Source of the DNA: an uncultured Candidatus Saccharibacteria bacterium
GTDB lineage: Bacteria > Patescibacteriota > Minisyncoccia > UBA6257 > 2-01-FULL-56-20
Length of the DNA: 64,000 nt
Assembly (NCBI GenBank): GCA_964568535.1
Contig: CAZMPQ010000001.1
Coordinates: 6,183-70,182, forward strand
Reading direction: 5' to 3'
Position numbers and translations under genes: made by a program. Position 1 is the first letter of the stretch, and every line of letters begins with the position of its first letter. Positions 14,673 through 42,165 of this stretch are shown here, piece by piece. Under the pieces are notes generated by a model. The model worked only from the letters and a program-made list of their open reading frames with translations. It did no database searches and was not told the origin of the DNA.

Positions 14673-14700
14673 GAAAGTATCGTTCTCTTGTTAGTCCATT

Positions 14701-15636: not shown

Positions 15637-15734
15637 AATGGGCCTAGTGTAGTACGGAAGTCAGAGCGAATCAATGAAAACGGCCTCGCGCGGAGCGTGT
15701 CCACGCGAGGCCGAATTACCGAAGCTGTTGATGG

Positions 15735-16064: not shown

Positions 16065-16102
16065 GCTTTTCTCCTTTCAGCTTATCTAACAGATTGTCAA
16101 CG

Positions 16103-16765: not shown

Positions 16766-16843
16766 CGGCGCACCTCCTCAAGCCTGCCGAACACCCGCCC
16801 GGCAGATAGCTGGGCAATATTATAGTAGAAAAATTCTACAAAG

Positions 16844-19106: not shown

Positions 19107-19118
19107 GAAAGCGGCGCC

Positions 19119-20132
19119 CTAAAACAGCTTATCTTTCCACGTGCGCGGGGTCTTCGGACTCACGATCTCCAAGTCCAAGTGGTACCGAAAGGGTTTCACG
19201 CCGCGCGTCTGGATATAGACGATCATGTCGCGCAGGCCGTGCTCCAAGGTCGTTGTGGTCTTGTAGCCGAGCAACTTGCGCGCTTTTTCTGCGCTGCAGG
19301 TTGCGAGCTTCACTTCGTTCGGCCGGTCGGGCATATACACGGGCTTCAGCGGGAAATCCAGCAGCTTTGCGACGGTCTCGGCGAGCGTATTGATCGTGAT
19401 GAACTCTTCGTCCGGCCCGACGTTCACCACCTCCCCCACCACGCTCCGATCGAACGCCATTTTTTCCAGGGGGTCCACCACGTCCTGCACGAACGAAAAG
19501 CACCGTTTCTGCTCGCCGTCGCCATAGATCACCGGCTGACGGTTCTGCAACATAAGATTGATCATAATGGACGCGACGTTCCGATACGGATCGTCATACT
19601 TCTGTCGCGGGCCGATGATGTTATGGGGGACGGCGATAACATACTCGATGCCGTGCGTTTCGCAGAGGTTCCGTACCGTGAGTTCCGCAGCGTACTTCGC
19701 GATGCCGTAGGGGTCCTGCGGCTTCGGCGTCATGTCCTCCGTGAACGGAACGCGTTCCTGCGTGCCGTAACGCGCCATACTTGAACACAGCACGAACCGC
19801 TTGATCTTCTGGGCGATACCAGCGGAAAGCACCGATACGGTGATGTCGTACACATTGCGCGTCACGAGGTGCGGCGAAAAGACGCTCAATCCTTCGTATG
19901 CCGTCGCGGCGCAGTGGTAGACCACGTCAACGCCGTCCATGATGCGCGTCATCGCCGCGCGGTCGGCGCAATCCAGTGTATGGAACTCAACACCCGGCGG
20001 TACGTTGTCCAAATAGCCGCCCAAAAGATTGTCTACGCCGATCACCCGGTGCCCGCGCTCCAGGAACCGTTCAGCAAGATAACTGCCTAAAAAACCGGCC
20101 GCGCCGGTAATGAAGATGGTCTGTTTCGCCAT
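19119..20132 (-). CDS. NAD-dependent nucleotide-sugar epimerase/dehydratase (GalE/UXS-like SDR)
   Basis: Carries IFITGAAGFLGSYLAERF and YGIAK. Confidence 0.75.
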   Translation of the reverse strand: MAKQTIFITGAAGFLGSYLAERFLERGHRVIGVDNLLGGYLDNVPPGVEFHTLDCADRAAMTRIMDGVDVVYHCAATAYEGLSVFSPHLVTRNVYDITVSVLSAGIAQKIKRFVLCSSMARYGTQERVPFTEDMTPKPQDPYGIAKYAAELTVRNLCETHGIEYVIAVPHNIIGPRQKYDDPYRNVASIMINLMLQNRQPVIYGDGEQKRCFSFVQDVVDPLEKMAFDRSVVGEVVNVGPDEEFITINTLAETVAKLLDFPLKPVYMPDRPNEVKLATCSAEKARKLLGYKTTTTLEHGLRDMIVYIQTRGVKPFRYHLDLEIVSPKTPRTWKDKLF

Positions 20133-20178
20133 TCGCGCCTTTCATTGTAGTCGGCGGCGGCGCGAACGTCAAAGAAAT

Positions 20179-20997
20179 CTAGCTTTCCCGTATCGTCCTG
20201 CGAAGATCCTCGTTCACTTCCTCAAGCGTCTCCAGAAGCCGCACATCAACGCCCGCGGCTTTTGCGAACGCCGTGAGGGCACGCACATCCTTCGGTAGAC
20301 ACGCCCCCGCATATCCGCGATATCCCTCGTCAAAGACATCAAAGTGGCTCCCGCCGACGCGCGCATCCTGTGCAACGCCCTCTTTCACGGCTGTGTAATC
20401 GATATCCAGTGTTTTGCAGATGTCGTACATCTGGTTCGCGAAGACGACGCGCGCGGCGAGGAAGTTGTTGTTGAAATACTTCACCATCTCGGCCTCTCGC
20501 GCGCGCAGAACGCGCGCGTAGGGCGCTGGCGGGAGCATTGCAAGGACCGCTTCCGCAGCGCGCTTGCCCGCCTCGTTCGCATATCCGACGAGCTGCCGGT
20601 CGGGACGCAGAAAATCCTCATTCGCCGTTTTCGCGCGGAGAAATTCCGGATTGAACAGGATGGTCTTCCCGGGAAACTGCTTCTGATACCGTTCGGTGGA
20701 TGTCGGGAGCACTGTGGACTTCACGACCGCCACCTTGCCGTCGGCGACGGTGGTGAGCGACTCCACAACAGCCGAATCGTCGTATCCCTGTTTGCCGGAC
20801 GCAGGGTCCGTATGGAACGGCGTCGGCACGGCGATGAATACGGTGTCCGCGCGGTTCACTTCCGCAAGCGAACCGAGCCGTTTTGCCGTGTCGTAGAGAA
20901 ATACCTCGTACTCGTCGCGCTTCCCTTCGAACCAGTTCCGGAGCGCGCCGCCCACGTATCCCACCCCAATGATGCCGATCTTCTTCTTTGCGGGCAT
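20179..20997 (-). CDS. UDP-glucose/GDP-mannose 6-dehydrogenase-family protein lacking the C-terminal UDP-binding domain
   Basis: Carries KIGIIGVGYVGG, IAVPTP, FNPEFLRAKTANEDF and GYAGACLPKD (catalytic Cys). It stops after the central domain, about 273 aa from M51. Confidence 0.55.
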   Translation of the reverse strand: MPAKKKIGIIGVGYVGGALRNWFEGKRDEYEVFLYDTAKRLGSLAEVNRADTVFIAVPTPFHTDPASGKQGYDDSAVVESLTTVADGKVAVVKSTVLPTSTERYQKQFPGKTILFNPEFLRAKTANEDFLRPDRQLVGYANEAGKRAAEAVLAMLPPAPYARVLRAREAEMVKYFNNNFLAARVVFANQMYDICKTLDIDYTAVKEGVAQDARVGGSHFDVFDEGYRGYAGACLPKDVRALTAFAKAAGVDVRLLETLEEVNEDLRRTIRES

Positions 20998-21002
20998 CGT
21001 GC

Positions 21003-22058
21003 TCAATAATATTGGGCGCGCGACTGCACCTGGTAATGCTTCTGGAACGCCTGCGTTGCCTTGATCTTCCCCCACCAATCCGGATGCTTCACATACCACG
21101 ACACGAGGTCCGCCGCGGCGTTCTCCAGCGTGAACTGCGGCGCCCAACCAAGCTCGTTTTTTATTTTTGACGAATCAAGCGCATACCGCAGGTCCGCGCC
21201 CGGGCGATCGGCGACGTGCTGCCGGTGATGGGCGAGGTTTTTCCCCAAGTGATGCGCGAGCAGTTCCAGTACGCCCAAATTGGTCTTCTGCGCTCCGCCG
21301 GCGTTGTAGATGCTGTAATCAGACGCTTCGTGGGCAACAAGGTCTATCGCCGCGCAGAAGTCCTCCACGTGCACCCAACTCCGTGTGTGCTCGCCCGTTC
21401 CATGCACGGGTATCTTCTTCCCTTCTATCATGTTCGTGATAGCAAGCGGGATGAGCTTCTCGGGGTACTGATACGGCCCGAAATTATTTGACCCGCGGAC
21501 GATAAGCGCGGGTATCTGGTGTGTCTTTATCCATGCCTGCACCAAGAGGTCTGCGCCGGCTTTTGAGGACGAGTAGGGATTGGATGGGCGGAACGGCGTT
21601 TCTTCCGTCGCGAACCCTTCAGGAACCGACCCGTATATCTCGTCGGTTGATACCTGGATAAAGCGCGTCGTGCTGAATTTGCGCACTGCTTCAATGAGCG
21701 ACCGCACGCCTTCAATATTCGTCCGGATGAAGTCGTAGCCATTCACAATGGAACGGTCCACATGGCTCTCGGCGGCAAAGTTCACGACGAGATCAAATGC
21801 GTGTTCGGAGAAGATGCGCTCCAGGAGCTTCTCGTCGCAGATGTCCCCGTGGATGAACTGATAGCGGCGCTTCTCCGGGGGGAGCGCCCCGTCTTCCGCA
21901 GCAATGTCCGCTAAATTGTCCTGATTTCCCGCATACGTCAGGAGGTCCAAATTAAAAATACGCATCTGCGGATGCTTGCGGTATGCGTACCGGACGAAGT
22001 TAGATCCGATGAATCCCGAACCGCCGCATATGAGCGCGTTCTTAAAAGTCCGACGCAT
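21003..22058 (-). CDS. rmlB: dTDP-glucose 4,6-dehydratase
   Basis: Carries ALICGGSGFIGSNFVRY, STDEIYG and YSSSKAGADLLVQAW. It is collinear with RmlB. Confidence 0.8.
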   Translation of the reverse strand: MRRTFKNALICGGSGFIGSNFVRYAYRKHPQMRIFNLDLLTYAGNQDNLADIAAEDGALPPEKRRYQFIHGDICDEKLLERIFSEHAFDLVVNFAAESHVDRSIVNGYDFIRTNIEGVRSLIEAVRKFSTTRFIQVSTDEIYGSVPEGFATEETPFRPSNPYSSSKAGADLLVQAWIKTHQIPALIVRGSNNFGPYQYPEKLIPLAITNMIEGKKIPVHGTGEHTRSWVHVEDFCAAIDLVAHEASDYSIYNAGGAQKTNLGVLELLAHHLGKNLAHHRQHVADRPGADLRYALDSSKIKNELGWAPQFTLENAAADLVSWYVKHPDWWGKIKATQAFQKHYQVQSRAQYY

Positions 22059-22166
22059 GGTGGCTGGTGGTAAAAGCGGATGATATATGAAGAGCGCGGC
22101 GACCGCGCCGCGCGCGCAACCCTCTCATCCTACCGGCGAGCATCGCATTGTCAAGCGACGCTTTGG

Positions 22167-23156
22167 TCACCGCCCGCCGGTGCGGCGCTTTGCGAACACA
22201 TCAGTTGATCGATTGTCTTTGCATCGCACCATCAGCTCGCCCGGGGAGATCGGGGACATTGCGGTGGCGTGCTTTGTCAGTCGGAACGCATCCTCATTCG
22301 CATCGTAGAATGCAAACCCCATGCGCTCCAAGTCATACAGAAGCGCGGCCGGGTCCGTGCCGTAGAGGCGCATGCCGGCGGGCCACAGCTCAAAATGGAG
22401 CTTTATATCAGGATTTGCCTGCAAGAGCCCACGCATGCCGGCGATGACCGCCCCCTCCGAGCCCTGCACGTCTATCTTCACCAAGCTGACCGGACGCTTT
22501 TCGCCCTTCATGAATTCATCAAGCGACACCATCTGCACCTCAACAGACGGACGGAGGCCTGCTTGTTCAAGCACGAGCGATTTGTCTTCCTTGGTCAATG
22601 CCGTTGAGTGCGCAAGACGTTCCTGCGGATCGTAGCTTCGGTGGTCGCCCGGATTCGCTTCGGACATGTAGAGCCGCACCGTGCCGGCGCGTTCGCCAAC
22701 TGCTTTCGGAACGATGTCTACATTCGCGTAGTTGTTCATTGCAACATTTTTCCGCAGGAGAACGAGATTGTCCGGTCCCGGCTCAAAGGCGAATACCTTC
22801 CCCTCCGGGCCTACGCAGCGCGCGAAGGTCAGCGTGTGCATGCCGATGTTCGCACCGACATCCACGACCGCCGTGCCGCGGGGTATCTCGCGTTCAAAGA
22901 GGCGGCGCGTGTCGGCCTCGCGCTCGCCGCCGAACACGGCGAATGCGGCGCGGAATTGCCCGGGGACGGCGATGCGGTGCCCGTCTATCTCGTAAACCTC
23001 CGGCCACTCGTGGTGCTTCAGTGTCGCGTCTATTGTCCGGTAGAGGTAGCCGAACGGCCACACTTTCTGCAGACCTTTGCCGCGCAGATACGTCGTACCA
23101 ATGCGCCAAAAGAACGCTGCTCCCGCTATCTTTGCCTTCTCTAATATTCCCTTCAT
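22167..23156 (-). CDS. FkbM-family SAM-dependent methyltransferase
   Basis: Carries VVDVGANIGMHTLTFARCVGPEGKVFAFEPGPDNL. I chose the start at M47, which gives an ATGA overlap with the upstream gene. Confidence 0.7.
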   Translation of the reverse strand: MKGILEKAKIAGAAFFWRIGTTYLRGKGLQKVWPFGYLYRTIDATLKHHEWPEVYEIDGHRIAVPGQFRAAFAVFGGEREADTRRLFEREIPRGTAVVDVGANIGMHTLTFARCVGPEGKVFAFEPGPDNLVLLRKNVAMNNYANVDIVPKAVGERAGTVRLYMSEANPGDHRSYDPQERLAHSTALTKEDKSLVLEQAGLRPSVEVQMVSLDEFMKGEKRPVSLVKIDVQGSEGAVIAGMRGLLQANPDIKLHFELWPAGMRLYGTDPAALLYDLERMGFAFYDANEDAFRLTKHATAMSPISPGELMVRCKDNRSTDVFAKRRTGGR

Positions 23157-24202
23157 GCCGTGTGGTTCCCTGAAGATCGCAGGTGTCCGAGCATTTGCTG
23201 GGCACGATGGCGCCAGGTGTGGTGTTGCAGCACGTACTCGCGGACACGTGCCGCGCGCTTTGCACGCTCCGCGTCCATTCCCGGCGCGAGCCAATGGTCC
23301 AGAAGCGGATGTATCTCTTTTGCCGAGCTGAACGTCACGAGCGAATCCTTCGGGAAGAGGAGGTCGTGGTCCGCGCGATGGTCCACGAGCTGAAACAGCC
23401 CTGCAAGCGCGACCTCAAAGGTCCGCGCGGATACGGAGGTGAAGTGCCACGTCGAATGGATGTTGAGGAATAGTTTCGTCTTTGCATACAACTCGTTCAG
23501 CGCCGCCGTGCTCAACCGCCCGCTTTGGACAACGCGCTGTTTGAGCCCCGGGAAGTAGCGGTGCCAATACTCCAGCCCTGTGCCGCAGACGGCAACACGG
23601 TATTTTTCAGGAATGTCGGCGAGTATCTTTGCGCGCAGATAGCCGTCCCCGCTCTGCGGCGGCAAGCTGCCGGCGAAGACGATGTCGTATTCCTTTTTCG
23701 GCTCCGGCGAGAGCGGATGGAATACTTTGGGGTCGCCAGCAAGCGGGAGGTGCACCGCATCTTGCTCGCCGTAGAGGATGGTCATCCAGGACGGGAATCG
23801 GTCTATCGTGAACACCCGGTCCACGTACGCGAGCGCCGCGAGGGCGTCCTTTGCCTGCGCGCCTGCGGCGGGAGAATCCATCCAGTAGAAGATGGGTTTC
23901 TTGAGCTCTCGCGCTTCGCGGACCGCCTCGGGCAGGATGTTCGGCGCGTGTTCCAAAACAATGAGGTCCGGCTTCGCGTCGCGGACGCTCTGGAGCCAGT
24001 CGCGGCTCACTGCCCTGCGAAACACGTCTTCCGCGCCATACTGCACCTTCGGAATGCGCGTGCCGATACGCTGTATCCATCGCTGGGTCTTCGTGCCGTT
24101 ATCGTTGAAAAACGAGACGCTGTGCCCAAGCTCGCGCAGGGCATCGCCGAAGAACGCGCCGAATCCCCCATGCCAAACCGGCGTCGTATAGTGTATCTTC
24201 AT
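23153..24202 (-). CDS. CgeB-like glycosyltransferase (paralog of the 2818..3873 gene)
   Basis: Carries FEVALAGLFQLVDH...DAERAKRAARVREYVLQHHTWRHR. Confidence 0.6.
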   Translation of the reverse strand: MKIHYTTPVWHGGFGAFFGDALRELGHSVSFFNDNGTKTQRWIQRIGTRIPKVQYGAEDVFRRAVSRDWLQSVRDAKPDLIVLEHAPNILPEAVREARELKKPIFYWMDSPAAGAQAKDALAALAYVDRVFTIDRFPSWMTILYGEQDAVHLPLAGDPKVFHPLSPEPKKEYDIVFAGSLPPQSGDGYLRAKILADIPEKYRVAVCGTGLEYWHRYFPGLKQRVVQSGRLSTAALNELYAKTKLFLNIHSTWHFTSVSARTFEVALAGLFQLVDHRADHDLLFPKDSLVTFSSAKEIHPLLDHWLAPGMDAERAKRAARVREYVLQHHTWRHRAQQMLGHLRSSGNHTA

Positions 24203-24267
24203 GCACAGACAGGATAATCCAACTCTCGCCCGAATGGAACCCGTGCGCGAATTGCTGCGTGAATAGA

Positions 24268-24302
24268 CCCCGAGCGGCGTGCTACGAGCACGCCGCTCGG
24301 GG
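24268..24302. terminator. perfect 16-bp inverted repeat with a 3-nt loop (CCCCGAGCGGCGTGCT-ACG-AGCACGCCGCTCGGGG)
   Basis: Read directly from the sequence. It lies between the end of the surface-protein operon and the start of the CgeB-like gene. There is no strong T-tract, so it is either a stem-loop terminator or an RNA stability element. Confidence 0.4.
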
Positions 24303-24319
24303 CGTTTACCGTATCGCTC

Positions 24320-24397
24320 TTACTGGGACGTAGAACTCGGAGCTGGAGCCGAAGGAGTTGAGGTAACGTGGATGGGAGGTGGAAGGGGTGGTAGTCC
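24320..24397 (-). pseudogene. relic 3' end of a third small-partner gene (it encodes ...GLPPLPPPIHVTSTPSAPAPSSTSQ*)
   Basis: The minus-strand translation matches the C-terminal tail of the 26134..27117 protein (PPPPPPIHVTSTPPAPAQSSTSQ*). No corresponding N-terminal or central domain lies upstream of it. Confidence 0.55.
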
Positions 24398-24404
24398 CTC
24401 TTTA

Positions 24405-24752
24405 TTAGAATAAAGTCGGGTGAGCAAACATTTGAGAGGCACCATACATAAAAAAAGCTGTCGATACGAATACCCCCAAAGAAAAGAAGAGAAAAGAAAA
24501 GAAGAGAAAAGAAGAGCCCAATCTTCTTAGCTGTTCTCGAAATCGCTTTATGAAGAAGTTCACCAAGAAAAATGGTAAAGAAAAAACACTGATGATTTCC
24601 AAGATTAGTGAATAAATGTTTTCAAATGGAAAGAGCGCCTTTGGCAAGCTTGGGAATACATCTAACGAATAGGGAATCGTAAAAACTAACAATCCGACTA
24701 CTATGCCACCTAAAAGATTTCCGACATAAAACAAATTTAACTTTTTTTTCAT
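24405..24752 (-). CDS. hypothetical small Phe-rich membrane protein in a low-GC (~30%) patch
   Basis: A 115-aa ORF with three or four hydrophobic segments. It begins MKKKLNLFYVGNLLGGIVVGLL, similar to the partner-protein signal anchors. The local GC content is far below the window average. Confidence 0.35.
   Translation of the reverse strand: MKKKLNLFYVGNLLGGIVVGLLVFTIPYSLDVFPSLPKALFPFENIYSLILEIISVFSLPFFLVNFFIKRFREQLRRLGSSFLFFSFLFFSLGVFVSTAFFMYGASQMFAHPTLF
24481..24516. repeat. simple purine-rich repeat, roughly (GAAAAGAAGA)x3.5
   Basis: The sequence reads gaaaagaagagaaaagaaaagaagagaaaagaagag. Confidence 0.6.
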
Positions 24753-24781
24753 GAATTTTTGATATTATTAACAAGATTATA

Positions 24782-26137
24782 TCACCATTTGATTATCCCT
24801 TTAATTCTATAAGGGTCGAAGATGGGGTTTAGCTTAGAACTCCAAAGCATTTCAAAATCGCTTATATCTTGGGTACCCAAGTCAGTCTTGGGCGATACAA
24901 GACCGCAAGTGCTAGTGGAATTATCCATAATATTATTTCCTGTACTATGCGCCAGACCGAGTGCGTGCCCAAGCTCATGCGTAATAGTGCATTGTTTCAT
25001 TGAATTCGTATAAGGATCCATATAGTAAGTATTGAAAAGGATATGAGGTTGGTTTGGTGTGGTTGTAGGAACCCATAATCCTGCTTTTCCCATCCATTGA
25101 CCAACGGTCGAGCTGACGACGTCTACATATATATCCCAATCTGAACCAGATGTAGAGGTTGATTTCTTGAGATTCACATAGCTTGCAGTCGCGTCATTCC
25201 AAGTAATGATTGCGTTTAACATTTGCGCATCATATGGCGTAGAACTGCCTATTCTCATGATATATGGCGATGTGCTTGTATTGACGCCCGGCGGCGACCA
25301 CTCGGTATTGTCAGGACGTGACAAGAACGCCGTGTAATAATTGTCCGCATCAATATAGTCAGAAATCTTCGCACCTGTTCCTGAAGCGTTCTGCGTGGCA
25401 TGCCAGGGTCCGGCGTTCTCCGTAGAACTGTTGGCATCATCCAGCGGATACCACCCACCCCAGAAGTTCAATCTCATTGTGGAGGTCGGACTGCCAGTCT
25501 TCCAAGCACTGCTTGTGCTGTTGTTGTATATCGTGCTCGACGCCACCGTCACCGTCCCGCCGGTAATATACAGGCCGTAATCGTTATCGTGTATCGCTGA
25601 TTCCGTTACCGTCGTCGCGCCTCCCGTGCTGTATATCCCGTAGTCCGAAGCATAGGAGATGTCGGTATATCTCGTATTGAGCGTGCCGCCAGTAACGTAC
25701 ACGGTACTGCCTGCTGTGTTTCCGCCGTATCTCACGACGGTTCCTGCGAGAGTCGTGCTCGCGCCGGAGGTAATTTGAATATTTCCCCAATCCCCTGCGG
25801 CTCCCGTTGAAGTTCCATCTCCATTCAGATCCCCTCCCACGCTGTCGTCTTTGAAGGAGGTGAAATATACGAGGGTAGGGCTCAGTGCTCCTCCTTTCAC
25901 ATCAAGCTCTCCGTTCACGATGAGGGAGGTAGATGGTTTGAACTTGATGATGGTGCCGGGTTCAATGGTGATAGTCTTGCCTGCATTGATGGTGACGGTT
26001 GAGGAGACGATATATGGGCCTTCGGCTTTGGACCAGGTGGTGGAGGTTGCGATGGAGCCGGAGAGGGTGCTGGATGGCTTCGCCACGAGTGGTATGCATA
26101 CAAGCATACCACTTTGTTCTATGCGCTCACAGCTCAC
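24782..26137 (-). CDS. secreted parallel beta-helix plus metzincin zinc-metallopeptidase domain protein (a truncated paralog of the 1058-aa protein, lacking the LamG domains)
   Basis: It is about 85-95% identical to the C-terminal ~440 aa of the 27152..30328 gene product. It carries HELGHALGLAHS. An ATGA overlap couples it to the upstream partner gene. Confidence 0.6.
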   Translation of the reverse strand: MSCERIEQSGMLVCIPLVAKPSSTLSGSIATSTTWSKAEGPYIVSSTVTINAGKTITIEPGTIIKFKPSTSLIVNGELDVKGGALSPTLVYFTSFKDDSVGGDLNGDGTSTGAAGDWGNIQITSGASTTLAGTVVRYGGNTAGSTVYVTGGTLNTRYTDISYASDYGIYSTGGATTVTESAIHDNDYGLYITGGTVTVASSTIYNNSTSSAWKTGSPTSTMRLNFWGGWYPLDDANSSTENAGPWHATQNASGTGAKISDYIDADNYYTAFLSRPDNTEWSPPGVNTSTSPYIMRIGSSTPYDAQMLNAIITWNDATASYVNLKKSTSTSGSDWDIYVDVVSSTVGQWMGKAGLWVPTTTPNQPHILFNTYYMDPYTNSMKQCTITHELGHALGLAHSTGNNIMDNSTSTCGLVSPKTDLGTQDISDFEMLWSSKLNPIFDPYRIKGIIKW

Positions 26138-27117
26138 TGACTGGTTGATGACTGAGCAGGTGCTGGAGGCGTTGAGGTAACGTGGATAGGAGGCGGAGGG
26201 GGCGGAGTTGGTGGTTGGGGTGGAGGCGGATAAAATGGGGCGCAGTCGGGGTCTTGGGCGTCGGTGAGGTTGTCGAGGTCGTTGTCTTTGTTGTCACGAC
26301 AATTCACCTGATGGTCCTCTCGATAATATGGCCGGCAGTTGGGGTCGCCCTGATCGACAAGTCTATCTCCGTCATTATCTATGCCGTCGCGACAACTACT
26401 CCCTGAAGTTTCTGTTGTATCTTGTGGTAGTGGCGGTGGCGGCAATGTCTCTGGCACAGGACGGGGAGGTATGAGTTCAGCAAATTTATTGTGGACTGCC
26501 TGTTTCTCAGCTTGGGAGAGCGACTGGAATAAATTAGCGGCAGATTCGCCTGTTGTGCGTCCGTCAAATGGTATCTCATTCGGATACGCATTGAGTAGTT
26601 CGTATGTCCGCGCGTGTCGTAAAACGAGTTCTCTTAATTGCTCCTTACTCAAGTTGGCGTGCTCACTCACTACGGTCTTAGTCGCCGGATGAAAACCTAC
26701 AAAATACCATGGGCCAGCTTCATCGGGGAGATGAGTAGCTCCAAACAGATACGTTGTGCCGGGTGCAAGTTTATCCCCTTTTGTAGAATCCAAGCTCACA
26801 ACAATCCTATCCTCGGCAATACCTTTGATATTGTAAATAACCTCAACGTCATATTGTGTTCTTGATAAACCCAGTGAGTTATCGCTTCTTCCTGCTTCTG
26901 CAAGCACCTTGCCGGCAAATACATTTTGGTAATAACCAACCAACCTGCGGTTGTTATTGAAGTCAGTTGCCCACGTCGCGGCAATGCCGGATTCTCCCAT
27001 GTTCTTTACGCCTGAGTCAGTTGGTGTCTGAAAACCAACCTGCTGTACACCCCTCATCCCGAGATAGATTGCACCGAAAATCAAGATACTTCCAACGATA
27101 AATAGTCGTTTCTTCAT
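26134..27117 (-). CDS. secreted partner protein: signal anchor, a conserved domain of unknown function, two Cys-bracketed Asp-rich (TSP3-like calcium-binding) repeats, and a poly-proline C-terminal tail
   Basis: Starts MKKRLFIVGSILIFGAIYLG. Carries CRDGIDNDGDRLVDQGDPNC and CRDNKDNDLDNLTDAQDPDC, and ends PPPPQPPTPPPPPPIHVTSTPPAPAQSSTSQ. It is a paralog of the 38053..39054 gene. Confidence 0.6.
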   Translation of the reverse strand: MKKRLFIVGSILIFGAIYLGMRGVQQVGFQTPTDSGVKNMGESGIAATWATDFNNNRRLVGYYQNVFAGKVLAEAGRSDNSLGLSRTQYDVEVIYNIKGIAEDRIVVSLDSTKGDKLAPGTTYLFGATHLPDEAGPWYFVGFHPATKTVVSEHANLSKEQLRELVLRHARTYELLNAYPNEIPFDGRTTGESAANLFQSLSQAEKQAVHNKFAELIPPRPVPETLPPPPLPQDTTETSGSSCRDGIDNDGDRLVDQGDPNCRPYYREDHQVNCRDNKDNDLDNLTDAQDPDCAPFYPPPPQPPTPPPPPPIHVTSTPPAPAQSSTSQ

Positions 27118-27151
27118 GGTGATGGTTAATTATGTGATGACCCTATGGAAC

Positions 27152-30100
27152 TTATTGCCATTGAATGATGTTTTTCAATCGGTGCGGATCGAAAATAGGG
27201 TGCAGAGCGGGGGTCCAAAGCAATCGAAAATCGCTTATGTCTTGGGCACTTAGATTGGTCTGCGACGATCCTATCTGGCACGTCTGGTCCATTAAGTTGC
27301 CTTCCGGACTATGCGCCAATCCCAAAGCATGCCCGAGCTCGTGGGTGGTTACGCACTGCTTATTCATCTCGACGCCCATTCGCGCGGTATTGAAGTAAAT
27401 GTGAGCGATGCTAGTTGAAGACGGGATATAAAACCATGCCCAACCTCGAGGAACATAAAGCCCGGCCCAATCCAGTGTAGAACTCGTAATATCTGCCGCG
27501 GCCACATCCCACTGCGAGTTCGGGTACGAACTTGCCTTCTCTAAGTTAATATAACCTACGGTTGTATCATTCCAAGTATCAATGCCATCCTCCAATTGCG
27601 TCTGATATTGAGTAGAACTGCCCACCCGCATCACGTATGTTGATGTATTAGTGTAAACAGCTAACGGCGACCAAGTGTTAACATTAGGATGAGACAAATA
27701 CGCGGTGTAGTAATTGTCCGCGTCTATGTAATCGGATATTTTCGCTCCAGTCCCACTAGTATTCTGCGTAGCGTGCCACGGTCCAGCATTTTCCGTCGAG
27801 GTGTTCTTTTCGCTTGAGCCATCATAAGTATCGTCGAGCGGATACCATCCACCCCAGAAGTTCCATTTCATTGTGGAGGTCGGGCTGCCGGTTTTCCAAG
27901 CACTGCTTGTCGCGTTGTTATATATCGTGCTCGATGCCACCGTCACCGTCCCACCGGTAATATACAGACCGTAATCGTTGTCATGTATCGCTGATTCCGT
28001 TACCGTCGTTGCCCCTCCTGTGCTGTATATGCCGTAGTCCGAGGAGTAGGAGATATCGGTATATCGGGCGTTCAGCGTGCCTCCAGTCACGTAGATGGTA
28101 CTACTTGCAGTGCTTCCACCATAGCGGACAACGCTTCCTGCGATGGTAGTACTCGCCCCCGAGTTGATTTGGATATGCCCCCAATCCCCTGCCACCGGCG
28201 CTGTCGCTCCTCCGTCTCCATTCGTATCCCCACCCACACTGTCATCCTTGTATGACGTGAAATATACGAGCGTGGAGCTCAGTGCTCCTCCCTGCACATC
28301 AAGCTCTCCGTTCACGATGAGGGAGGTAGAGGGTTTGAACTTGATGATGGTGCCGGGTTCAATGGTGATAGTCTTGCCTGCATTGATGGTGACGGTTGAG
28401 GAGACGATATATGGGCCTTCGGCTTTGGACCAGGTGGTGCTGGTTGCGATGGTACCGGAGAGGAGGCCTCCGCAGCCGGAGGATTGGGCGCAGACGCGCC
28501 TGCCCTGACTACTGTTCCAGAGCTTCGTCACTTCGCCTGCGGTCAATGCGCGGTTCAGGACCACCACCTCGTCAATCATAGCAGAGATCTTTCCGTAACC
28601 GCCGCCTGAGGGGTAGCCGCCGTGGGCGCCGATGCCGGTGCCGGTGTCTACCGCCGAGGTGCCGTTCCCGGAGCCAGCGGCTGCCTCGGCCTTGAGGTCG
28701 TTCTGCACATAGAGGCGGAGGCTCGTGCCGTCGAAGGTGCAGGCGACGTGGTACCAGGTGGAAGTTGCGAGGCCGTTCCCGCCATTCGTCCAGGAGGCGG
28801 TCTCGTTCGCGGCGCCCCAGCGATTCCGTTGGCAATAAAGTGTCCTCGTGCTCCCGCCGGTATATTCAATGCCGTAGGCAACATCAGTGCCGCTGTCCAC
28901 GACGGAGACGATTTCCTGGTCTCCGGAGGCGATGCTGGCGAACTTGACCCAGGCCGCGAGAGACATGGCGCCCCCGGAGATACCGAGATTCTCCGACGCG
29001 TAAAGATACTTCGTCGTGTTGTCCGTCCCGAAGTCCGCGGCAGTGCCGAGCACGCCGGTTCCCGTTGCGGCGGGGCCGTAGTTCGTCAGGGTGTAGTGAT
29101 TGCCGCTCGCGTCGGCGGCGAAGTGATGGTCAGTATGGTAGAGCGCTCGGATCGCGCCGTCGGTGATCTGGAGATACGGCGATGGGTCCGTTTCCACCGT
29201 GAAATCAAATACATCCGCCGTCCCGAATTGCGTCCAGGAGGATGTGGCGAAAGTCACAGTGTCCTGCGCCCGCGCGCGCCAGTACCAGGACCCGGGCGTG
29301 ATAGAGGAAACGGTCGTTGACGCCTGTGCGCCAGGCGCGACTGGGGAGCTTGTCTGCGTCATTGGGCCGGCGAACGAGGTGCTCGTTGCGAGCTCCACCT
29401 GGACTATGAGCTGGTTCGTGGATGAGGAGTTCGGGATAGCCTTGAGCACGACGCTCGTCTCCGCCGTCGTTGCTCCTTCGGCGAGCGAGGTCGTACCGTT
29501 AGACTTGAACTGGAGGAGATCGCCGATGCTCGGCGGCGTGGACGACGTGCAGCCTACCGTAACGCAAATCGTATCCCCCGAACCGCTGTTCCAGAGCGCA
29601 TTGCGAGTAGAGGTGGAGATGCGGGTGTTCATGAAAAAGAGCTCATCGATATGGAAGTCACCGAGTGCAGCCGCGTTGCATACGGGATTCACGTTCGCCG
29701 AGCGGCCGTTCACGCAGATATCCGTCGTGAAGTTCGTCGTGTCACTGTCGCTCCCCGAGGTCACGATGGTGTTGTTCACATACCACTCTACCGAGCTTCC
29801 CGTACGGGTCAGGAGATGCCACTGCCAAGCGCCGACTGGCGGGCTGGAGGTGGTGTATTGCATCTCGCAGGGCGGCGTACCGTCCACGAACTCCAGGACG
29901 CCTGCGGCACAGGCCTGCGCACGGCTTATCTGTTCGATGCTGTCAGCTCCCGCACTACGGCGGCTGATCACGGCATCATCGTCCAGGGTCGCTTGTGCAT
30001 TAATCCAGAAACCGATGCTGAAATCACTGGAGAGGTCCATAGCGCTGGACGAGGCTCGGAACCAGCCGGTTCCCTGAGTGTCGCCGGCGTTGCCGAACCA

Positions 30101-30328
30101 ACCGGTCACGTAGGCGGTGCCGCTTGCGGTGAGGTTCCTACCGTTTCCTGAGGAATCGCTTGCATCCTCAAAGTGGTAGAGGGCGGTGACGGAGCTTGAG
30201 GGGATGTATACAGTGGCGGAGGCGGGGTGGGGGAAGAAAAACGCCGCCAAGATGGCGACGGTAGGGACGGCGAGGACAGCGGCGGACGTTATTCCACCGA
30301 ACGGAACGACCCTGGCGTTCCTGAACAT
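27152..30328 (-). CDS. very large secreted surface protein: signal peptide, two LamG_3 (concanavalin A-like) domains, an Ig/FN3-like region, a parallel beta-helix and a C-terminal metzincin (M10-like) catalytic domain
   Basis: Starts MFRNARVVP followed by a hydrophobic helix. The LamG_3 domain ends are ALYHFEDASDSSGNG...IDELFFMNTRISTSTRNALWNSG and ALYHTDHHFAADASGNH...IDEVVVLNRALTAGEVTKLWNSS. The beta-helix repeats include TGGATTVTESAIHDNDYGLYITGG. The zinc motif is THELGHALGLAHS, and the conserved C-terminus is FDPHRLKNIIQWQ. Confidence 0.75.
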   Translation of the reverse strand: MFRNARVVPFGGITSAAVLAVPTVAILAAFFFPHPASATVYIPSSSVTALYHFEDASDSSGNGRNLTASGTAYVTGWFGNAGDTQGTGWFRASSSAMDLSSDFSIGFWINAQATLDDDAVISRRSAGADSIEQISRAQACAAGVLEFVDGTPPCEMQYTTSSPPVGAWQWHLLTRTGSSVEWYVNNTIVTSGSDSDTTNFTTDICVNGRSANVNPVCNAAALGDFHIDELFFMNTRISTSTRNALWNSGSGDTICVTVGCTSSTPPSIGDLLQFKSNGTTSLAEGATTAETSVVLKAIPNSSSTNQLIVQVELATSTSFAGPMTQTSSPVAPGAQASTTVSSITPGSWYWRARAQDTVTFATSSWTQFGTADVFDFTVETDPSPYLQITDGAIRALYHTDHHFAADASGNHYTLTNYGPAATGTGVLGTAADFGTDNTTKYLYASENLGISGGAMSLAAWVKFASIASGDQEIVSVVDSGTDVAYGIEYTGGSTRTLYCQRNRWGAANETASWTNGGNGLATSTWYHVACTFDGTSLRLYVQNDLKAEAAAGSGNGTSAVDTGTGIGAHGGYPSGGGYGKISAMIDEVVVLNRALTAGEVTKLWNSSQGRRVCAQSSGCGGLLSGTIATSTTWSKAEGPYIVSSTVTINAGKTITIEPGTIIKFKPSTSLIVNGELDVQGGALSSTLVYFTSYKDDSVGGDTNGDGGATAPVAGDWGHIQINSGASTTIAGSVVRYGGSTASSTIYVTGGTLNARYTDISYSSDYGIYSTGGATTVTESAIHDNDYGLYITGGTVTVASSTIYNNATSSAWKTGSPTSTMKWNFWGGWYPLDDTYDGSSEKNTSTENAGPWHATQNTSGTGAKISDYIDADNYYTAYLSHPNVNTWSPLAVYTNTSTYVMRVGSSTQYQTQLEDGIDTWNDTTVGYINLEKASSYPNSQWDVAAADITSSTLDWAGLYVPRGWAWFYIPSSTSIAHIYFNTARMGVEMNKQCVTTHELGHALGLAHSPEGNLMDQTCQIGSSQTNLSAQDISDFRLLWTPALHPIFDPHRLKNIIQWQ

Positions 30329-30380: not shown

Positions 30381-31655
30381 CTACTCGCCGATCACTTTGA
30401 ATTCCGGTAACGGCACAATGAACTTGCCGCCGCGGGCGAAGAATTCCTTCTCACGCTCTCTGAACTCCGGCAGAAAGTGCCACGGCAGGATGAGGAAGTA
30501 GTGCGGCGCGTCCGCGCGGGCCTGCTCTTCGGAAATGATGGGTACGCGGCTCCCAACGGTCTTCTTTCCCCACTTCTGCGGATTTCGCTCTGCGGCGAAC
30601 GGGATGTGTCCATGATCAAGCCCGTAATACTGGAGGAGTGTGTTCCCCTTTGTTGATGCGCCATATACATATACTTTCTCGCCGCGCTTTTTCGCATCTT
30701 TGATGAATTGCACCGTCTTTGCCTTCATCTCCTCAACGCGCTTTGCGAATGCGTCGTAGGCCTTCCGTTCTGAAAGCTCAAGTTTTTTCTCTTCCGCATG
30801 CAACGCTGCGATGCGCTCTTTCGCGCCTTCGGGAATATGGAGGTGCTTGCCTCCGCCTTCGTGCTTTATATACACGCGGAAGCTGCCGCCGTTCACATCG
30901 TTCAGCTCCACATCGCAAACCTCAAGCTTGTGGCGCTTCAAGAGGTGTTCCAGCGAGCGGAGTGAGTAATATTCCAGGTGTTCATGGCAGATGTTATCGA
31001 ACGCGTTCTGCGACAGCATGAGCGGCAGATAACTCATCTGGATGATGAAGATGCCATCCTCGTGCAGAAGTTTCGCCACATCGCGGACGAACGCATTCGG
31101 GTCCTCCAGGTCGTAGAACATCGCGATAGCCGTCACGATCTTCGCCTTCTTGCCCGGAAGCTCCTTGTGCCACGCGTCGTAGTTGAAGAAGTCATTGATG
31201 ACCTTGTCTGCGCTCAACTTCGTTACCGGAACGAGATTTCGCGCCGGTTCAAAGCCGACCTTCACGACCGGGTCTGTGGCGTATCCACGAAGGAGCGTCC
31301 CGTCGTTCGCGCCGATATCCAATACGTGGTCTCCCGCCTCAAGCGTCGCGAATTTTTTCGCCGAGCGTACGATGTCGTGCAGGGCGTTCGTCATCGTCTG
31401 ATTCGTACCCGACACATACCAATAGTTCCGGTACATGACCTCGTTCGGCACCGTGTGCCGGAGCTGAAGCAGTCCGCACCCGCCCTGCTTCTCGTCACAG
31501 AGAGCAAGGGTCAGCGGATATGGCTCAAGCTCTTCATGCTCCTTATCGTCCACGAACGCGGACACGTAGAGATCCCCGAGAGAGAGTATCTCTTCAAGGT
31601 TTGCACTGCCGCAGACGCGGCAGGCGGATATTTCTTTGACGCCGTTCGTGCTCAT
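30381..31655 (-). CDS. sugar C-methyltransferase (TylC3/TcaB9-like: N-terminal Zn-ribbon, class I SAM-dependent methyltransferase domain, C-terminal C-methyltransferase domain)
   Basis: Carries ACRVCGSANLEEILSLGDL, then VLDIGANDGTLL, then a C-terminal domain of about 150 aa. Confidence 0.65.
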   Translation of the reverse strand: MSTNGVKEISACRVCGSANLEEILSLGDLYVSAFVDDKEHEELEPYPLTLALCDEKQGGCGLLQLRHTVPNEVMYRNYWYVSGTNQTMTNALHDIVRSAKKFATLEAGDHVLDIGANDGTLLRGYATDPVVKVGFEPARNLVPVTKLSADKVINDFFNYDAWHKELPGKKAKIVTAIAMFYDLEDPNAFVRDVAKLLHEDGIFIIQMSYLPLMLSQNAFDNICHEHLEYYSLRSLEHLLKRHKLEVCDVELNDVNGGSFRVYIKHEGGGKHLHIPEGAKERIAALHAEEKKLELSERKAYDAFAKRVEEMKAKTVQFIKDAKKRGEKVYVYGASTKGNTLLQYYGLDHGHIPFAAERNPQKWGKKTVGSRVPIISEEQARADAPHYFLILPWHFLPEFREREKEFFARGGKFIVPLPEFKVIGE

Positions 31656-31667
31656 GGAATGCCAGGC

Positions 31668-32729
31668 TTAGCCCGCAATATCGCGGACGAGCGCTCGTAT
31701 ATCCCTCATCGTAGAACGGTCGCGCAGAAACCGCAAGATATTTTCTCGGTACCGGGCCATATCCGCCTCCGTGCGCGACGCAAGAAAGCGGTGCACGTCC
31801 GCGTCGCTGCTGAACGTTCGCCGGTCGATAAAGCAATCTTCTGGCACGATCGTCGCGATGTCCGGCGCGCCCAGATAGACCGGGACGCATCCTGCCGCAA
31901 GACAGTCAAAGATCTTTTCGCTCACATATCCCGGGTACGCGGAGTTCTCATAGCAGATGGCAAATCTATATGTACTCATGAGCGGCATTTTATATTCCAC
32001 TCCTCCCCGCCACGCGCGCGCAACGTACGTGCCGTAGTGCATATAGAATGGGTGGCGGGGAGCGTGCTCCCAGCCGTGACCGTAGAGGTCAAACCCCGAA
32101 ACCCCGCTCCAATAACGGATAGCGCGAAGCCGCTCGCCATAGAGCTCATGCCGCAACGAGTGCGGACGCACGTTCCCGTTCACCAGCACCACAAACTTAT
32201 CTTTTCTATCTCCGAAATAGGGGCTCACGATATCGCGGTTGCGATAGAAGAACGGGTTGTAATATATGATGTCGTCTCCCCATCCTCGTCCCATCACCAT
32301 CATTGCGTGATACGTACCCGACCGGCGTATCGCACCCAGACGGTCGTATACATACGGCATCACGAGCGGCGACTCGCCCTGCACAAGCACGCGCCGTTTG
32401 AAAAACTTGAAGTTGTCAGCGAGGAACTTCTGCCGGGCACGCAAGAACCCCCCGCCGGAGCGGGCGTGTTTTACGGCATAGAACACGCGCCAGATGAGCG
32501 TCTCGCCTGGATGGTTCTGCACGAGCAGCACATCGTCCGGCCCTGCCATTTCGCGCGACCAGGCGTCCGTGGTATGCACTTCTATTCCAAGCTTTCGCGC
32601 TTCATCGGGAAATCCCTCGCCGAAGAACGGGATGTCCCACATGCCGCCCTCATAAATGCGTTTTGGGTTGCCGAACACCTGACCGCGAAGGCCTTGTTCG
32701 CTCGTCGGCAGTACGAATATGCGCTTCAT
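31668..32729 (-). CDS. GT10-like (alpha-1,3-fucosyltransferase family) glycosyltransferase
   Basis: Carries FAICYENSAYPGYVSEKIFDCLAAGCVPVYLGAP, which matches the GT10 FxxxFENSxxxxYxTEK and C-terminal motifs. Confidence 0.5.
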   Translation of the reverse strand: MKRIFVLPTSEQGLRGQVFGNPKRIYEGGMWDIPFFGEGFPDEARKLGIEVHTTDAWSREMAGPDDVLLVQNHPGETLIWRVFYAVKHARSGGGFLRARQKFLADNFKFFKRRVLVQGESPLVMPYVYDRLGAIRRSGTYHAMMVMGRGWGDDIIYYNPFFYRNRDIVSPYFGDRKDKFVVLVNGNVRPHSLRHELYGERLRAIRYWSGVSGFDLYGHGWEHAPRHPFYMHYGTYVARAWRGGVEYKMPLMSTYRFAICYENSAYPGYVSEKIFDCLAAGCVPVYLGAPDIATIVPEDCFIDRRTFSSDADVHRFLASRTEADMARYRENILRFLRDRSTMRDIRALVRDIAG

Positions 32730-34123: not shown

Positions 34124-34177
34124 TGAACACCACCATCCTAGCCGAGAACCGCGCGTGCGGCAACCGGCGCACGCCGC

Positions 34178-34909: not shown

Positions 34910-34956
34910 ATATATGGAGATGCGGTCCCATGCCGGGGCCGCGCATGGTCATTGTA

Positions 34957-37826: not shown

Positions 37827-38052
37827 CTATTCCCCTTCTTCAGGCCCAGAGCCGCCGAAGAGCTTGCGAACGCCGGCAGTGAGCCGGAAAAAACGCGCGA
37901 GCGCCATCTGCCACAGCGAACTCCCCGCGCCGGGGTCAATGTACCCCAGGGCTTTCAATTGCTCTACAACTTCGTCACGTGAGGGATCTTGTTCGTCAGC
38001 CACGCGATGATGGTAGCAGAGGAAATGGAGGGTGTAAACGCTGACACGCCAA

Positions 38053-39054: not shown

Positions 39055-39079
39055 TGCATTGTTTAATGTGTTAGGGACC

Positions 39080-42139: not shown

Positions 42140-42165
42140 GATGATTGAACGATACCACGGAGGAA

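Follow-up and report, generated by a model that had tools for sequence, protein, structure and literature searches.

A probable patescibacterial relative of Listeria Tim, with a predicted TIMP-like fold, is encoded beside giant metzincin proteins

At two places in a 64,000-nucleotide stretch of DNA, the whole of which we call the window, a gene for a giant surface protein that ends in a metzincin-type protease domain is followed on the same strand by a gene for a much smaller protein. The arrangement raises the question of what the smaller protein, here called the partner, is and what it does with the protease. An earlier note on the sequence had proposed a functional pair and offered a cognate inhibitor, a chaperone and a wall-spanning anchor as possible roles. 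The two partner genes, both minus-strand open reading frames (ORFs), encode the following features.

26134-27117, minus strand: partner gene 1 (327 aa), encoding an anchor, a Tim/NTR-like domain, two acidic repeats of the Ca-binding type and a Pro/Ser/Thr tail (ORF and translation, 11 homologues)
27046-27105, minus strand: hydrophobic segment of partner 1 (residues 5-24), interpreted as either an uncleaved signal peptide or a signal anchor
26446-26985, minus strand: putative Tim-family NTR/TIMP-like domain of partner 1 (residues 45-224), predicted OB barrel and C-terminal helices, motifs AYPNEI and ELIPxRPVPE
26335-26412, minus strand: acidic repeat 1 of partner 1 (E236...C242-C261), with six Asp and conserved columns, matching NF033662
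26242-26319, minus strand: acidic repeat 2 of partner 1 (E267...C273-C292), the better conserved repeat, with a profile match to 7PLP
26137-26241, minus strand: Pro-rich segment of partner 1 and its conserved C-terminal tail, STPPAPAxSSTxQ (38% Pro, longest Pro run 6)
38053-39054, minus strand: partner gene 2 (333 aa), organized like partner 1
38989-39045, minus strand: anchor of partner 2
38392-38940, minus strand: putative Tim-like domain of partner 2
38278-38355 and 38185-38262, minus strand: acidic repeats of partner 2, matching NF033662
38056-38184, minus strand: tail of partner 2

The two proteins are paralogues and are 47% identical (E 3e-85). Since the features they share are conserved in 11 homologues, these features are far beyond chance. 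Each partner has a single hydrophobic segment, which lies at the N terminus (residues 4-24; Kyte-Doolittle 19-residue maxima of 1.85 and 2.31), in agreement with the signal anchor proposed earlier. In partner 1 this anchor was modelled as a helix spanning residues 3-23, and it is kept throughout the family. A linker of ~25 residues separates the transmembrane segment from the NTR-like domain. Each partner has four Cys residues, all within the acidic repeats; the N-terminal 240 residues, and with them the NTR-like domain, contain none. An LPXTG-, PEP-CTERM- or PGF-CTERM-type sorting signal was considered and dropped, as the partner has no hydrophobic segment at its C terminus.

Between the linker and the repeats, both partners share a conserved domain that contains RTYELLNAYPNEI. 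The earlier note had described it as ~150 aa of unknown function; the conservation stood and extends over ~180 aa, and the family now has a candidate identity. When a profile of the family (alignment A3, 24 sequences) was compared with a profile of the Listeria Tim family (A5) using hhalign, the two matched with 99.2% probability (E 1.6e-19) over 145 columns. Alignment A2 matched the single Listeria sequence with 93.5% probability. The Listeria protein that we used is 99% identical to an L. monocytogenes "cell surface protein" and is present in the six Listeria species of the published Tim alignment (PMC8235301). Although the sequence identity between the partner and Listeria Tim is only ~20-25%, these profile matches indicate that the partner is a member of the Tim family in the Patescibacteria (CPR) and a distant relative of Listeria Tim.

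Structure prediction pointed to a known fold. We obtained two independent AlphaFold2 models of the partner from shallow alignments (11 and 26 sequences), the second with a pLDDT of 90.3 and a pTM of 0.87. In these models the central domain forms an OB-fold barrel with helices at its N and C termini, the arrangement expected of TIMP and NTR domains. The top five Foldseek matches of the modelled domain were TIMP-1 and TIMP-2 chains, and the matches to this fold aligned 104-120 residues, compared to 74-81 for OB folds of the SSB/PriB type. Thus, the central domain is predicted to adopt a TIMP/NTR fold.

The canonical TIMP mechanism depends on Cys1 being free at the N terminus and on two disulfides, Cys1-Cys70 and Cys3-Cys99, and many NTR modules, such as agrin NtA, PCOLCE and complement C345C, are non-inhibitory. 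The partner shows neither the N-terminal Cys-x-Cys with its free alpha-amine nor the disulfides; its Cys-free domain is preceded by the transmembrane segment and linker. Compared to metazoan TIMPs and NTR modules (TIMP-1/2/3, agrin NtA, the PCOLCE NTR, complement C345C), the CPR partner is similarly paired, in its case genetically, with an MMP-like metzincin that scores as Peptidase_M10. It differs from them in lacking Cys1-x-Cys3 and disulfides, in being apparently membrane-tethered and in having no Pfam TIMP or NTR match.

The family appears to be large and to have gone unannotated. A word-indexed search returned 11 homologous proteins, while an exhaustive HMM search returned 799 clusters at 50% identity in the CPR/Patescibacteria, and no Pfam model covers the 11 close homologues or Listeria Tim. 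Pfam searches of the 11 close homologues at E values up to 10 gave nothing meaningful, including no match to TIMP (PF00965) or NTR (PF01759); the only match, to PRIMA1 at E 0.24, is due to proline bias. A profile search of the PDB returned only teneurin chains, through the repeats, besides one chance-level match at E 1.9. PADLOC matched neither the partner nor the giant protein nor Listeria Tim, while PHROGs returned nothing for the partner, Listeria Tim, Listeria Mtz or the Tim-like protein of distant locus L010; there is therefore no sign of a defense system and no phage-family annotation.

If the partner belongs to the Tim family, a metzincin should be its companion, and the genes upstream fit. 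These genes, and a third ORF downstream of partner 1, are as follows.

27152-30328, minus strand: giant surface protein 1 (1058 aa), with a signal peptide, two LamG_3 domains (Laminin_G_3 7e-19), a beta-helix and a C-terminal Mtz-type metzincin
27212-27760, minus strand: metzincin catalytic domain of giant 1 (residues 857-1039), 144 bits with a local HMM
27311-27343, minus strand: zinc motif HELGHALGLAHS of giant 1, with Met-turn NLMD
39080-42199, minus strand: giant surface protein 2 (listed with 1039 aa; the ATG at 42139 is the likely start), metzincin domain at 39131-39667
24782-26137, minus strand: truncated copy of the beta-helix and metzincin (451-aa ORF), with motif HELGHALGLAHS and no signal peptide, metzincin domain at 24839-25387

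Both giants end in HExxHxxGxxH and a Met-turn and score above the Peptidase_M10 cut-off (30.3 and 28.8 bits against 24), which agrees with the protease genes noted earlier as lying tightly upstream. The local metzincin-domain HMM also recognizes Listeria Mtz, at 95.7 bits. The giants have a cleavable-looking signal peptide, no obvious anchor of their own and no recognizable prodomain ahead of the metzincin. The partner genes begin 34 and 25 bp downstream of giants 1 and 2, a correction to the 26-35 bp given before, and the partner is probably co-transcribed with the upstream metzincin gene. In a promoter and terminator scan, no terminator-like site fell between giant 1 and partner 1; over the whole scan, neither the 4 promoter-like sites (mean after shuffling, 5.2) nor the 9 terminator-like sites (5.8, sd 2.1) were clearly more than expected.

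The third ORF is 86.5% identical to giant 1 over 635 nt, and from this similarity we take it to be a partial tandem duplicate of giant 1. It overlaps partner 1 by 4 bp. The overlap, first read as ATGA, is GTGA, with a GTG start, and is probably an artefact of ORF extension, because the similarity to the giant begins ~22 codons in, no signal peptide is present and a hairpin with an 11-bp stem (26087-26114) lies within the first ~20 codons. With this, the argument for translational coupling falls, and we dropped it. A comparable signal-less metzincin copy follows the Tim-like gene at one distant locus, L014.

The earlier note had named homologues that are never linked to metzincin genes as the outcome that would undo the pairing; we found the opposite. 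Among close homologues, all six pairs, on five outside contigs, are linked to a metzincin. A scan of metagenomes with alignment A4 yielded 51 distant loci (26-50% identity), 37 of which encode a metzincin domain on the same strand; where at least 1.5 kb of upstream sequence was available, the count was 25 of 30. At the distant loci the metzincin domain is always C-terminal in its ORF. No metzincin was found at five of the 30 loci with ample upstream sequence (L011, L016, L018, L025 and L028), and six-frame translation of the distant loci revealed no extended zinc motif elsewhere, except in the second metzincin copy of L014.

The two domains also occur within single proteins. One fusion (P0056) consists of a beta-helix, a metzincin and then a Tim-like domain, with no transmembrane segment between them; another (P0086) has the Tim-like domain first and the metzincin second; and two Firmicute proteins (P0211 and P0212) join Mtz (PF00413) to Tim. 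The existence of fusions in both domain orders argues strongly, at the genomic level, for partner and metzincin working together physically. Together with synteny that is conserved from close to very distant homologues, this supports the functional pair proposed in the earlier note.

We consider it reasonably probable that the two proteins form a CPR variant of the Mtz-Tim pair, in which the partner is a tethered protein with an NTR/TIMP-type core that binds and regulates the metzincin, probably as an inhibitor. Of the roles that had been offered, a cognate inhibitor appears to fit best, given the predicted TIMP/NTR fold and the profile homology to Listeria Tim. In such a pair, both proteins would be exported by the Sec pathway, and the N terminus of the partner would hold it at the membrane's outer face. 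Its NTR-like domain would bind the catalytic domain of the cognate metzincin at the membrane surface, and binding would most likely hold the prodomain-less protease latent or localized, with the partner acting as a TIMP-like inhibitor or regulator. The protease may also clip the partner in the linker N-terminal to the NTR domain, at the conserved D-[FY]-x-[ND]-x-R-x-L-V-G, releasing the domain or the complex. Direct binding, inhibition and cleavage in this organism, as well as Ca binding and glycosylation, are steps that we infer.

The Listeria system (LMRG_00713/00714; Boichis et al., 2021, PMC8235301) is the closest guide to these steps. In both systems the two genes are homologous, with the partner immediately downstream, and the partner is N-terminally membrane-tethered, has a TIMP-like predicted fold and carries a conserved segment at the place where Tim is cleaved. 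The differences are considerable. The CPR metzincin is the C terminus of a LamG/beta-helix protein of ~1050 aa, while Listeria Mtz is a secreted enzyme of 164 aa. Listeria Tim is tethered through a lipobox (Sec/SPII), whereas the CPR partner has a plain hydrophobic anchor, its transmembrane segment; a clean lipobox is also missing in some members of the Listeria clade. The CPR partner adds the helical AYPNEI/ELIPxRPVPE region, two repeats of the Ca-binding type and the Pro/Ser/Thr tail. The settings differ as well: the CPR locus lies within a glycan-synthesis island, and the Listeria pair lies beside a cI/cro switch or in a prophage.

When Mtz cuts Tim in Listeria, ~50 residues are lost from the N terminus, and the phenotype depends on both proteins; this work documents cleavage and a cell-wall phenotype rather than inhibition (PMC8235301). 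The partner could be mainly a substrate or pro-effector, with clipping freeing an NTR-like fragment that acts, by itself or together with the protease, on a cell envelope, which is what has been proposed for Listeria Tim; for an ultra-small CPR bacterium living on other cells, the wall of the host could be the target. Mtz cuts Tim at about residues 49-55, and the fragment or the pair sensitizes cells and their neighbors to lysins, penicillin and mutanolysin (PMC8235301). The cleavage region of Tim, LDIDNPN, aligns with the conserved partner segment TDFNNNR, and the Cys residues found at the inhibitory edge of TIMPs are missing from the central domain. However, Listeria Tim may instead have a regulatory role, and fusions in both orders would be explained equally well or better by an intramolecular regulator or prodomain. 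We regard a pro-effector as a minority prospect, and one that is compatible with a regulator of the metzincin.

The C-terminal part of the partner bears on its possible role as an anchor. As had been noted, each partner contains exactly two C...C repeats; they are 20 residues long and have 6-7 Asp each. Asp conservation was something that the earlier note had wanted checked: in repeat 2, C273, D275, D278, D280, D282, D286, D289, P290, D291 and C292 are invariant among homologues, and the columns of repeat 1 are conserved. Both partners score above the 41-bit cut-off of NF033662, the NCBIfam model of the acidic double-disulfide repeat (47.6 bits for partner 1 and 56.6 for partner 2), with two stretches each. 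We take the name to imply two disulfides, and so four Cys, per repeat; the partner repeats have two. Repeat 2 also matches the C-rich Ca-binding domain of teneurin-4 (7PLP; profile match, E 9.6e-5) with Asp/Asn ligand positions aligned.

The shared motif is C-x-D-x-x-D-N-D-x-D-G-L-x-D-x-x-D-P-D-C, in which the outer Cys correspond to teneurin C838-C857; the partner repeats contain two Cys, and therefore one possible disulfide, compared to four to six Cys in the reference repeats (7PLP, NF033662, TSP3). Teneurin Ca sites I and II have been described as TSP type-3-like (PMC9058538). The conserved Ca-ligand positions suggest that the repeats bind Ca2+. Of the earlier description of TSP3- or dockerin-like Ca2+ loops, the likeness to a Ca-binding domain held, through teneurin; no Pfam match followed (TSP_3 and Dockerin_1 gave none in the 11 close homologues at E up to 10), and the curated match is NF033662.

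The tail is 38-40% Pro and ends in STPPAPAxxSTxQ. It had been described as a run of at least 10 prolines; the longest uninterrupted run is 6. The tail is conserved in homologues, and S/T-rich tails occur in 43 of 149 family representatives. Repeats are present in 15 of the 159 family proteins examined. The family core only rarely carries the repeats and the Pro/Ser/Thr tail.

These proportions weigh on the proposal that the partner is an anchor or scaffold that holds the giant protease on the surface, with dockerin-like repeats and a Pro-rich tail that spans the wall. The partner does combine an N-terminal membrane anchor, acidic repeats of the Ca type and a Pro-rich tail, and the giant has no obvious anchor beyond its cleavable-looking signal peptide. 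But linkage persists in metagenomes even though most partners there lack repeats, and it is the NTR-like domain that is conserved across phyla. Moreover, the tail is not placed between the membrane and the globular domain but at the free C terminus, distant from the N-terminal anchor, and Pfam gives no match to dockerin, TSP3 or a cell-wall-binding domain. An anchor or scaffold is thus decidedly unlikely. We also consider it very improbable that the partner is a prodomain-like foldase in trans, needed for folding or maturation of the metzincin and then degraded, with no regulatory role that lasts; NTR folds are not known to serve as protease foldases. That proposal draws on the absence of a recognizable prodomain, on fusions in which the Tim-like and catalytic domains are direct neighbors, in either order, and on cleavage of Tim by Mtz in Listeria (PMC8235301), but when Mtz is expressed with Tim in Listeria, Tim is not degraded and a cleaved fragment of it persists stably.

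For the tethered regulator that we favor, the acidic repeats would bind Ca2+ and, with the Pro/Ser/Thr tail, form a rigid, subfamily-specific extension that is perhaps glycosylated and may be dispensable for core pairing. Such a regulator would have counterparts in arrangement. Operon-encoded metzincin inhibitors, such as those of the Pseudomonas AprA-AprI pair, the serralysin inhibitor Inh and the Tannerella potempins, are encoded as small cognate binders adjacent to a prodomain-less secreted metzincin and act in a compartment that the protease passes. AprI and Inh are eight-stranded barrels, a fold unlike that of the CPR partner. We detected no homology between the partner and AprI, Inh or the potempins, and while these are characterized biochemically, the partner is known from sequence and models.

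TIMPs are generally regarded as an animal invention, and in the literature searched the only bacterial "TIMP-like" partner was Listeria Tim, in one 2021 paper, which also cites AprI (PMC8235301). The window suggests that the Mtz-Tim two-gene module is present in the CPR/Patescibacteria in a much elaborated form. This gives a name and a testable role to a common "hypothetical protein" beside giant surface proteins of ultra-small episymbiotic bacteria, indicates a Cys-free use of the NTR fold with metzincins and offers many natural sequence variants for biochemical work on how proteases are regulated at a wall-exposed membrane surface.

A broader reading would make Mtz-Tim an ancient and widespread prokaryotic counterpart of animal MMP-TIMP that expanded greatly in the CPR, became fused to giant adhesin-like proteins and is used at the host interface. 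The partner would then represent a new class of Cys-free TIMP-like inhibitors that are activated by cleavage of the tether and might share ancestry with the NTR/TIMP fold of metazoans. We consider this broader reading unlikely.

Rfam and tRNA scans of the window detected only a tRNA-Leu, at 54960. We rejected Saccharibacteria as a label for the window, since RNase Y indicates Patescibacteria of a Paceibacteria- or Parcubacteria-like kind. The closest genome with the pair is nevertheless labeled Ca. Saccharibacteria.

The window holds two gene pairs, each a large LamG/beta-helix/metzincin gene (giant 1 or giant 2) followed by a smaller partner gene, and a third ORF behind the first pair. All lie in or beside a surface-glycan island:

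14700-24200, 30381-37826 and 42200-48284: surface-glycan island (GT2 genes, GT10-like fucosyltransferase, GT87-like protein)
24782-26137 (-): third ORF, a partial duplicate of giant 1 (beta-helix and metzincin)
26134-27117 (-): partner 1, ORF of 327 aa
27152-30328 (-): giant 1, 1058 aa, same strand, 34 bp upstream of partner 1
38053-39054 (-): partner 2, ORF of 333 aa, paralogue of partner 1
39080-42199 (-): giant 2, 1039 aa, same strand, 25 bp upstream of partner 2

The measured gaps replace the 26 to 35 bp of the earlier note. Partners 1 and 2 are 47% identical (E 3e-85). Both giants have a signal-peptide-like N terminus, two Laminin_G_3 domains, a beta-helix region and, at the extreme C terminus, a minimal metzincin domain (HELGHALGLAHS...NLMD) that scores 30.3 (giant 1) and 28.8 bits (giant 2) against Peptidase_M10 (cut-off 24). 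For giant 2, the TTG given as the start (42139-42199, -) probably lies 20 codons too early; an ATG at 42139 yields MFRNARVVP..., the same beginning as giant 1.

An alignment of 11 homologues gave the layout of the partner:

residues ~5-24: N-terminal hydrophobic anchor, the sole hydrophobic segment
~20 residues: variable linker between anchor and conserved domain
residues 45-224: conserved domain of ~180 residues, terminating in a strongly conserved RTYELLNAYPNEI and KFxELIPxRPVPE
after the conserved domain: two 20-residue repeats, C-x-D-x-x-D-N-D-x-D-x-x-x-D-x-x-D-P-[DN]-C
next: FYPP, then a Pro-rich stretch
end: conserved C terminus, STPPAPAxSSTxQ

The earlier description of anchor, conserved domain, two Asp-rich repeats and tail is thus largely right. 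Its run of 10 or more prolines is instead a stretch of 38-40% Pro with a longest run of 6. Each repeat contains 6-7 Asp and is preceded, six residues upstream, by an invariant Glu; the partner's only four Cys all lie in the two repeats. A Ser/Thr-rich tail, whose counterparts in the window are 26137-26180 and 38056-38100 (-), also ends 43 of 149 Tim-like family representatives (P0016-P0164), with Q or N as the last residue in 21 of the 43 (e.g., ...TSTGQ, ...TSTATSTQ). A C-terminal hydrophobic segment is absent. The tail may serve as a tag for sorting, processing, or O-glycosylation that is specific to the lineage.

In L. monocytogenes, the gene for the secreted metzincin Mtz is directly followed by that for the lipoprotein Tim, predicted by Phyre2 to be TIMP-like; Mtz removes ~50 N-terminal residues of Tim, and co-expression of the two renders cells and their neighbours more sensitive to lysins and cell-wall antibiotics (Boichis et al. 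2021, PMC8235301). A Listeria contig (L009), reached through a weak tblastn match of the partner domain (E 0.4), carries a gene for a 164-aa metzincin and, after it, the gene for a 206-aa protein. This protein is 99% identical to an L. monocytogenes "cell surface protein" and was found in all six Listeria species of the published Tim alignment (PMC8235301). When profiles of 24 diverse CPR domains and 23 Tim-family proteins were compared, they matched with 99.2% probability (E 1.6e-19, 145 columns), and an HMM of CPR metzincin domains gave Listeria Mtz 95.7 bits. Because of this Tim profile match and Mtz score, both genes of the window pair are, by sequence comparison, homologous to Mtz-Tim. 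In the alignment, the stretch where Listeria Tim is cut, LDIDNPN (residues 49-55), falls on a conserved segment of the partner, D-[FY]-x-[ND]-x-R, immediately ahead of strand A. Separately, a human faecal phage-like contig (L010, MT838947.1) encodes a Tim-like lipoprotein (1075-1740, 90% hhalign probability) followed by a DUF4879 protein (1829-2419), with no metzincin upstream of the Tim-like gene.

The conserved domain, described earlier as of unknown function, is thus a homologue of Listeria Tim, and structure modelling predicts a TIMP/NTR-like fold. TIMP/NTR structures matched a first model, built from the 11-sequence alignment, over 97-120 residues (104-120 for the best four); SSB/PriB-type OB folds scored at most 8.9, with 74-81 residues aligned. 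Independently, Foldseek placed TIMP-2 and TIMP-1 chains on top (E 2.3e-4 to 8.9e-4). A second model, of the domain alone with a deeper 26-sequence alignment (pLDDT 90.3, pTM 0.87), gave the same ranking: NtA 11.7, N-TIMP-3 10.8, PCOLCE NTR 10.0, and TIMP-1 9.0. However, canonical TIMPs have a free N-terminal Cys-x-Cys, whereas the partner domain has no Cys and no such N terminus. A further point against a canonical TIMP mechanism is that numerous NTR modules act as binders and not as inhibitors.

The pairing with metzincins extends well beyond the window. A word-indexed search recovered 11 close relatives, and in every case with readable context the gene upstream is a large LamG/metzincin gene. 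One MAG contig, labelled Ca. Saccharibacteria, has two such pairs (L001/L006 and L007), and L002, L003, L004, and L005 have one each. An HMM of the domain alone, run exhaustively, detected 799 clusters at E <= 1e-3 (336 of them at E <= 1e-10), most of the proteins being 200-350 aa with an N-terminal anchor. Among 51 metagenome loci (26-50% domain identity), 37 encode, on the strand of the Tim-like gene, an Mtz-type metzincin domain. Of the 30 loci whose upstream sequence reaches 1.5 kb or more, 25 show this linkage, and in these 25 the metzincin ORF stops 128-1392 bp before the domain match begins. The metzincin domain is always C-terminal in its ORF, and the one other occurrence of the extended zinc motif in six-frame translations of the loci is a second metzincin copy in L014. 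The outcome that the earlier note named as refuting its idea, homologues never linked to metzincins, is decisively rejected. The linkage, though strong, is not obligatory, for five loci whose upstream sequence is ample have Tim-like genes that stand alone or in tandem. The two domains are also found naturally fused, in either order: beta-helix, metzincin, then Tim-like domain, lacking the anchor (P0056), and Tim-like domain, then metzincin (P0086). P0211 and P0212 are Firmicute Mtz(PF00413)-Tim fusions.

Other arrangements were also seen. At 50% identity, the nearest relative of the domain among the metagenome loci (L011, 3575-4300) follows a MacB/FtsX-type ABC permease (953-3421) on a contig of different character, with no metzincin and no acidic repeats, and may be a horizontally transferred stand-alone copy. 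P0027 and P0028 carry two complete Tim-like domains in tandem, and L028 has Tim-like genes at 3-395 and 1388-2290 on the same strand, ~1 kb apart, with no metzincin.

The partner is very probably a Tim-family partner of an Mtz-type metzincin, and the two proteins are likely to interact directly. In the mechanism we propose, the tethered NTR-like domain would bind the metzincin catalytic domain as it emerges at the membrane, and the partner would most likely restrain the protease, which has no prodomain; clipping of the tether, as in Listeria, would then free the domain or the complex. True inhibition is a more tentative proposal, at best evenly balanced. Alternatively, the partner could be a pro-effector that is released to act on a cell wall, or a foldase acting in trans. 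The weakest alternative is a surface anchor or scaffold, as the conserved linkage does not depend on the repeats and Pro-rich tail, which stand at the protein end far from the membrane.

The repeats matched nothing in Pfam, but scored 47.6 and 56.6 bits in the two partners against NCBIfam NF033662, "acidic double-disulfide repeat" (cut-off 41). Among solved structures, the family profile matches the C-rich domain of teneurin-4 (7PLP, E 9.6e-5), with the partner consensus lCrDekDnDlDglkDaaDPDC aligned to teneurin CGDSKDNDGDGLVDCMDPDC. In the teneurin crystal structure, three Ca2+ are bound by the aligned Asp/Asn, two of the sites (I and II) being likened to thrombospondin type-3 repeats, and C838-C857 is the counterpart of the repeat's first and last Cys (PMC9058538). 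Since the repeat Asp/Asn align to these ligands, we infer on good grounds that the partner repeats bind Ca2+. The earlier comparison with thrombospondin type-3 repeats survives indirectly, through the teneurin sites and not through Pfam. Compared with the teneurin and NF033662 repeats, those of the partners are pared down to two Cys each. With only 15 of 159 examined family proteins carrying them, they are an extra feature of this subfamily.

The kind of system is already known from one paper, in Listeria and other Gram-positives. Models in Pfam, PHROG, and PADLOC gave no match to either the partner or Listeria Tim, and the literature searched for CPR metzincins and for prokaryotic TIMP/NTR homologues yielded nothing relevant. 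New here are the presence and great expansion of the pair in CPR/Patescibacteria, the joining of the protease to giant LamG/beta-helix surface proteins, the fusions in both orders and, unlike the lipobox of Listeria Tim, tethering by a TM anchor. Also new, in this subfamily, are the teneurin-type Ca repeats and a Pro/Ser/Thr tail.

The third ORF lacks a signal peptide and is 86.5% identical to giant 1 over 635 nt. It overlaps partner 1 by 4 bp, reading GTGA rather than ATGA as in the earlier note. Because similarity to giant 1 begins ~22 codons into this 451-aa ORF, and its nominal first codons are filled by a hairpin (26087-26114), the overlap is probably an artefact. The hairpin, with a perfect-looking 11-bp stem and no U-tract, is situated 20 nt 3′ to the stop codon of partner 1 and could be a terminator or stabiliser. 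As in the window, an unrelated groundwater CPR contig (L014, 6645-7217, +) has a signal-less truncated metzincin, an HELSH variant, directly after a Tim-like gene and before a second one. Such copies could be recurrent tandem duplications or silent cassettes.

The large glycan-synthesis island that houses both pairs also encodes FkbM and C-methyltransferases, several 4,6-dehydratases/epimerases, UDP-glucose dehydrogenase, Wzy_C, and a sulfatase, and the pairs in L001, L002, and L003 are flanked by the same gene types. GC content is ~0.50 in the partner genes and truncated copy (24000-28000, 38000-40000), versus 0.565 for the window and ~0.60 in neighbouring glycan genes, which could reflect either composition (a richness in S, T, N, and K) or separate ancestry. 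The RNase Y encoded in the window has its best similarity (66-72%) to proteins named Paceibacterota, Liptonbacteria or Patescibacteria, which places the source among the CPR/Patescibacteria. Elsewhere, an isoleucyl-tRNA synthetase-like protein of 1167 aa (58609-62112, -) contains a complete His_Phos_1 (histidine phosphatase) domain, inserted as residues 509-668 between segments of the catalytic core.
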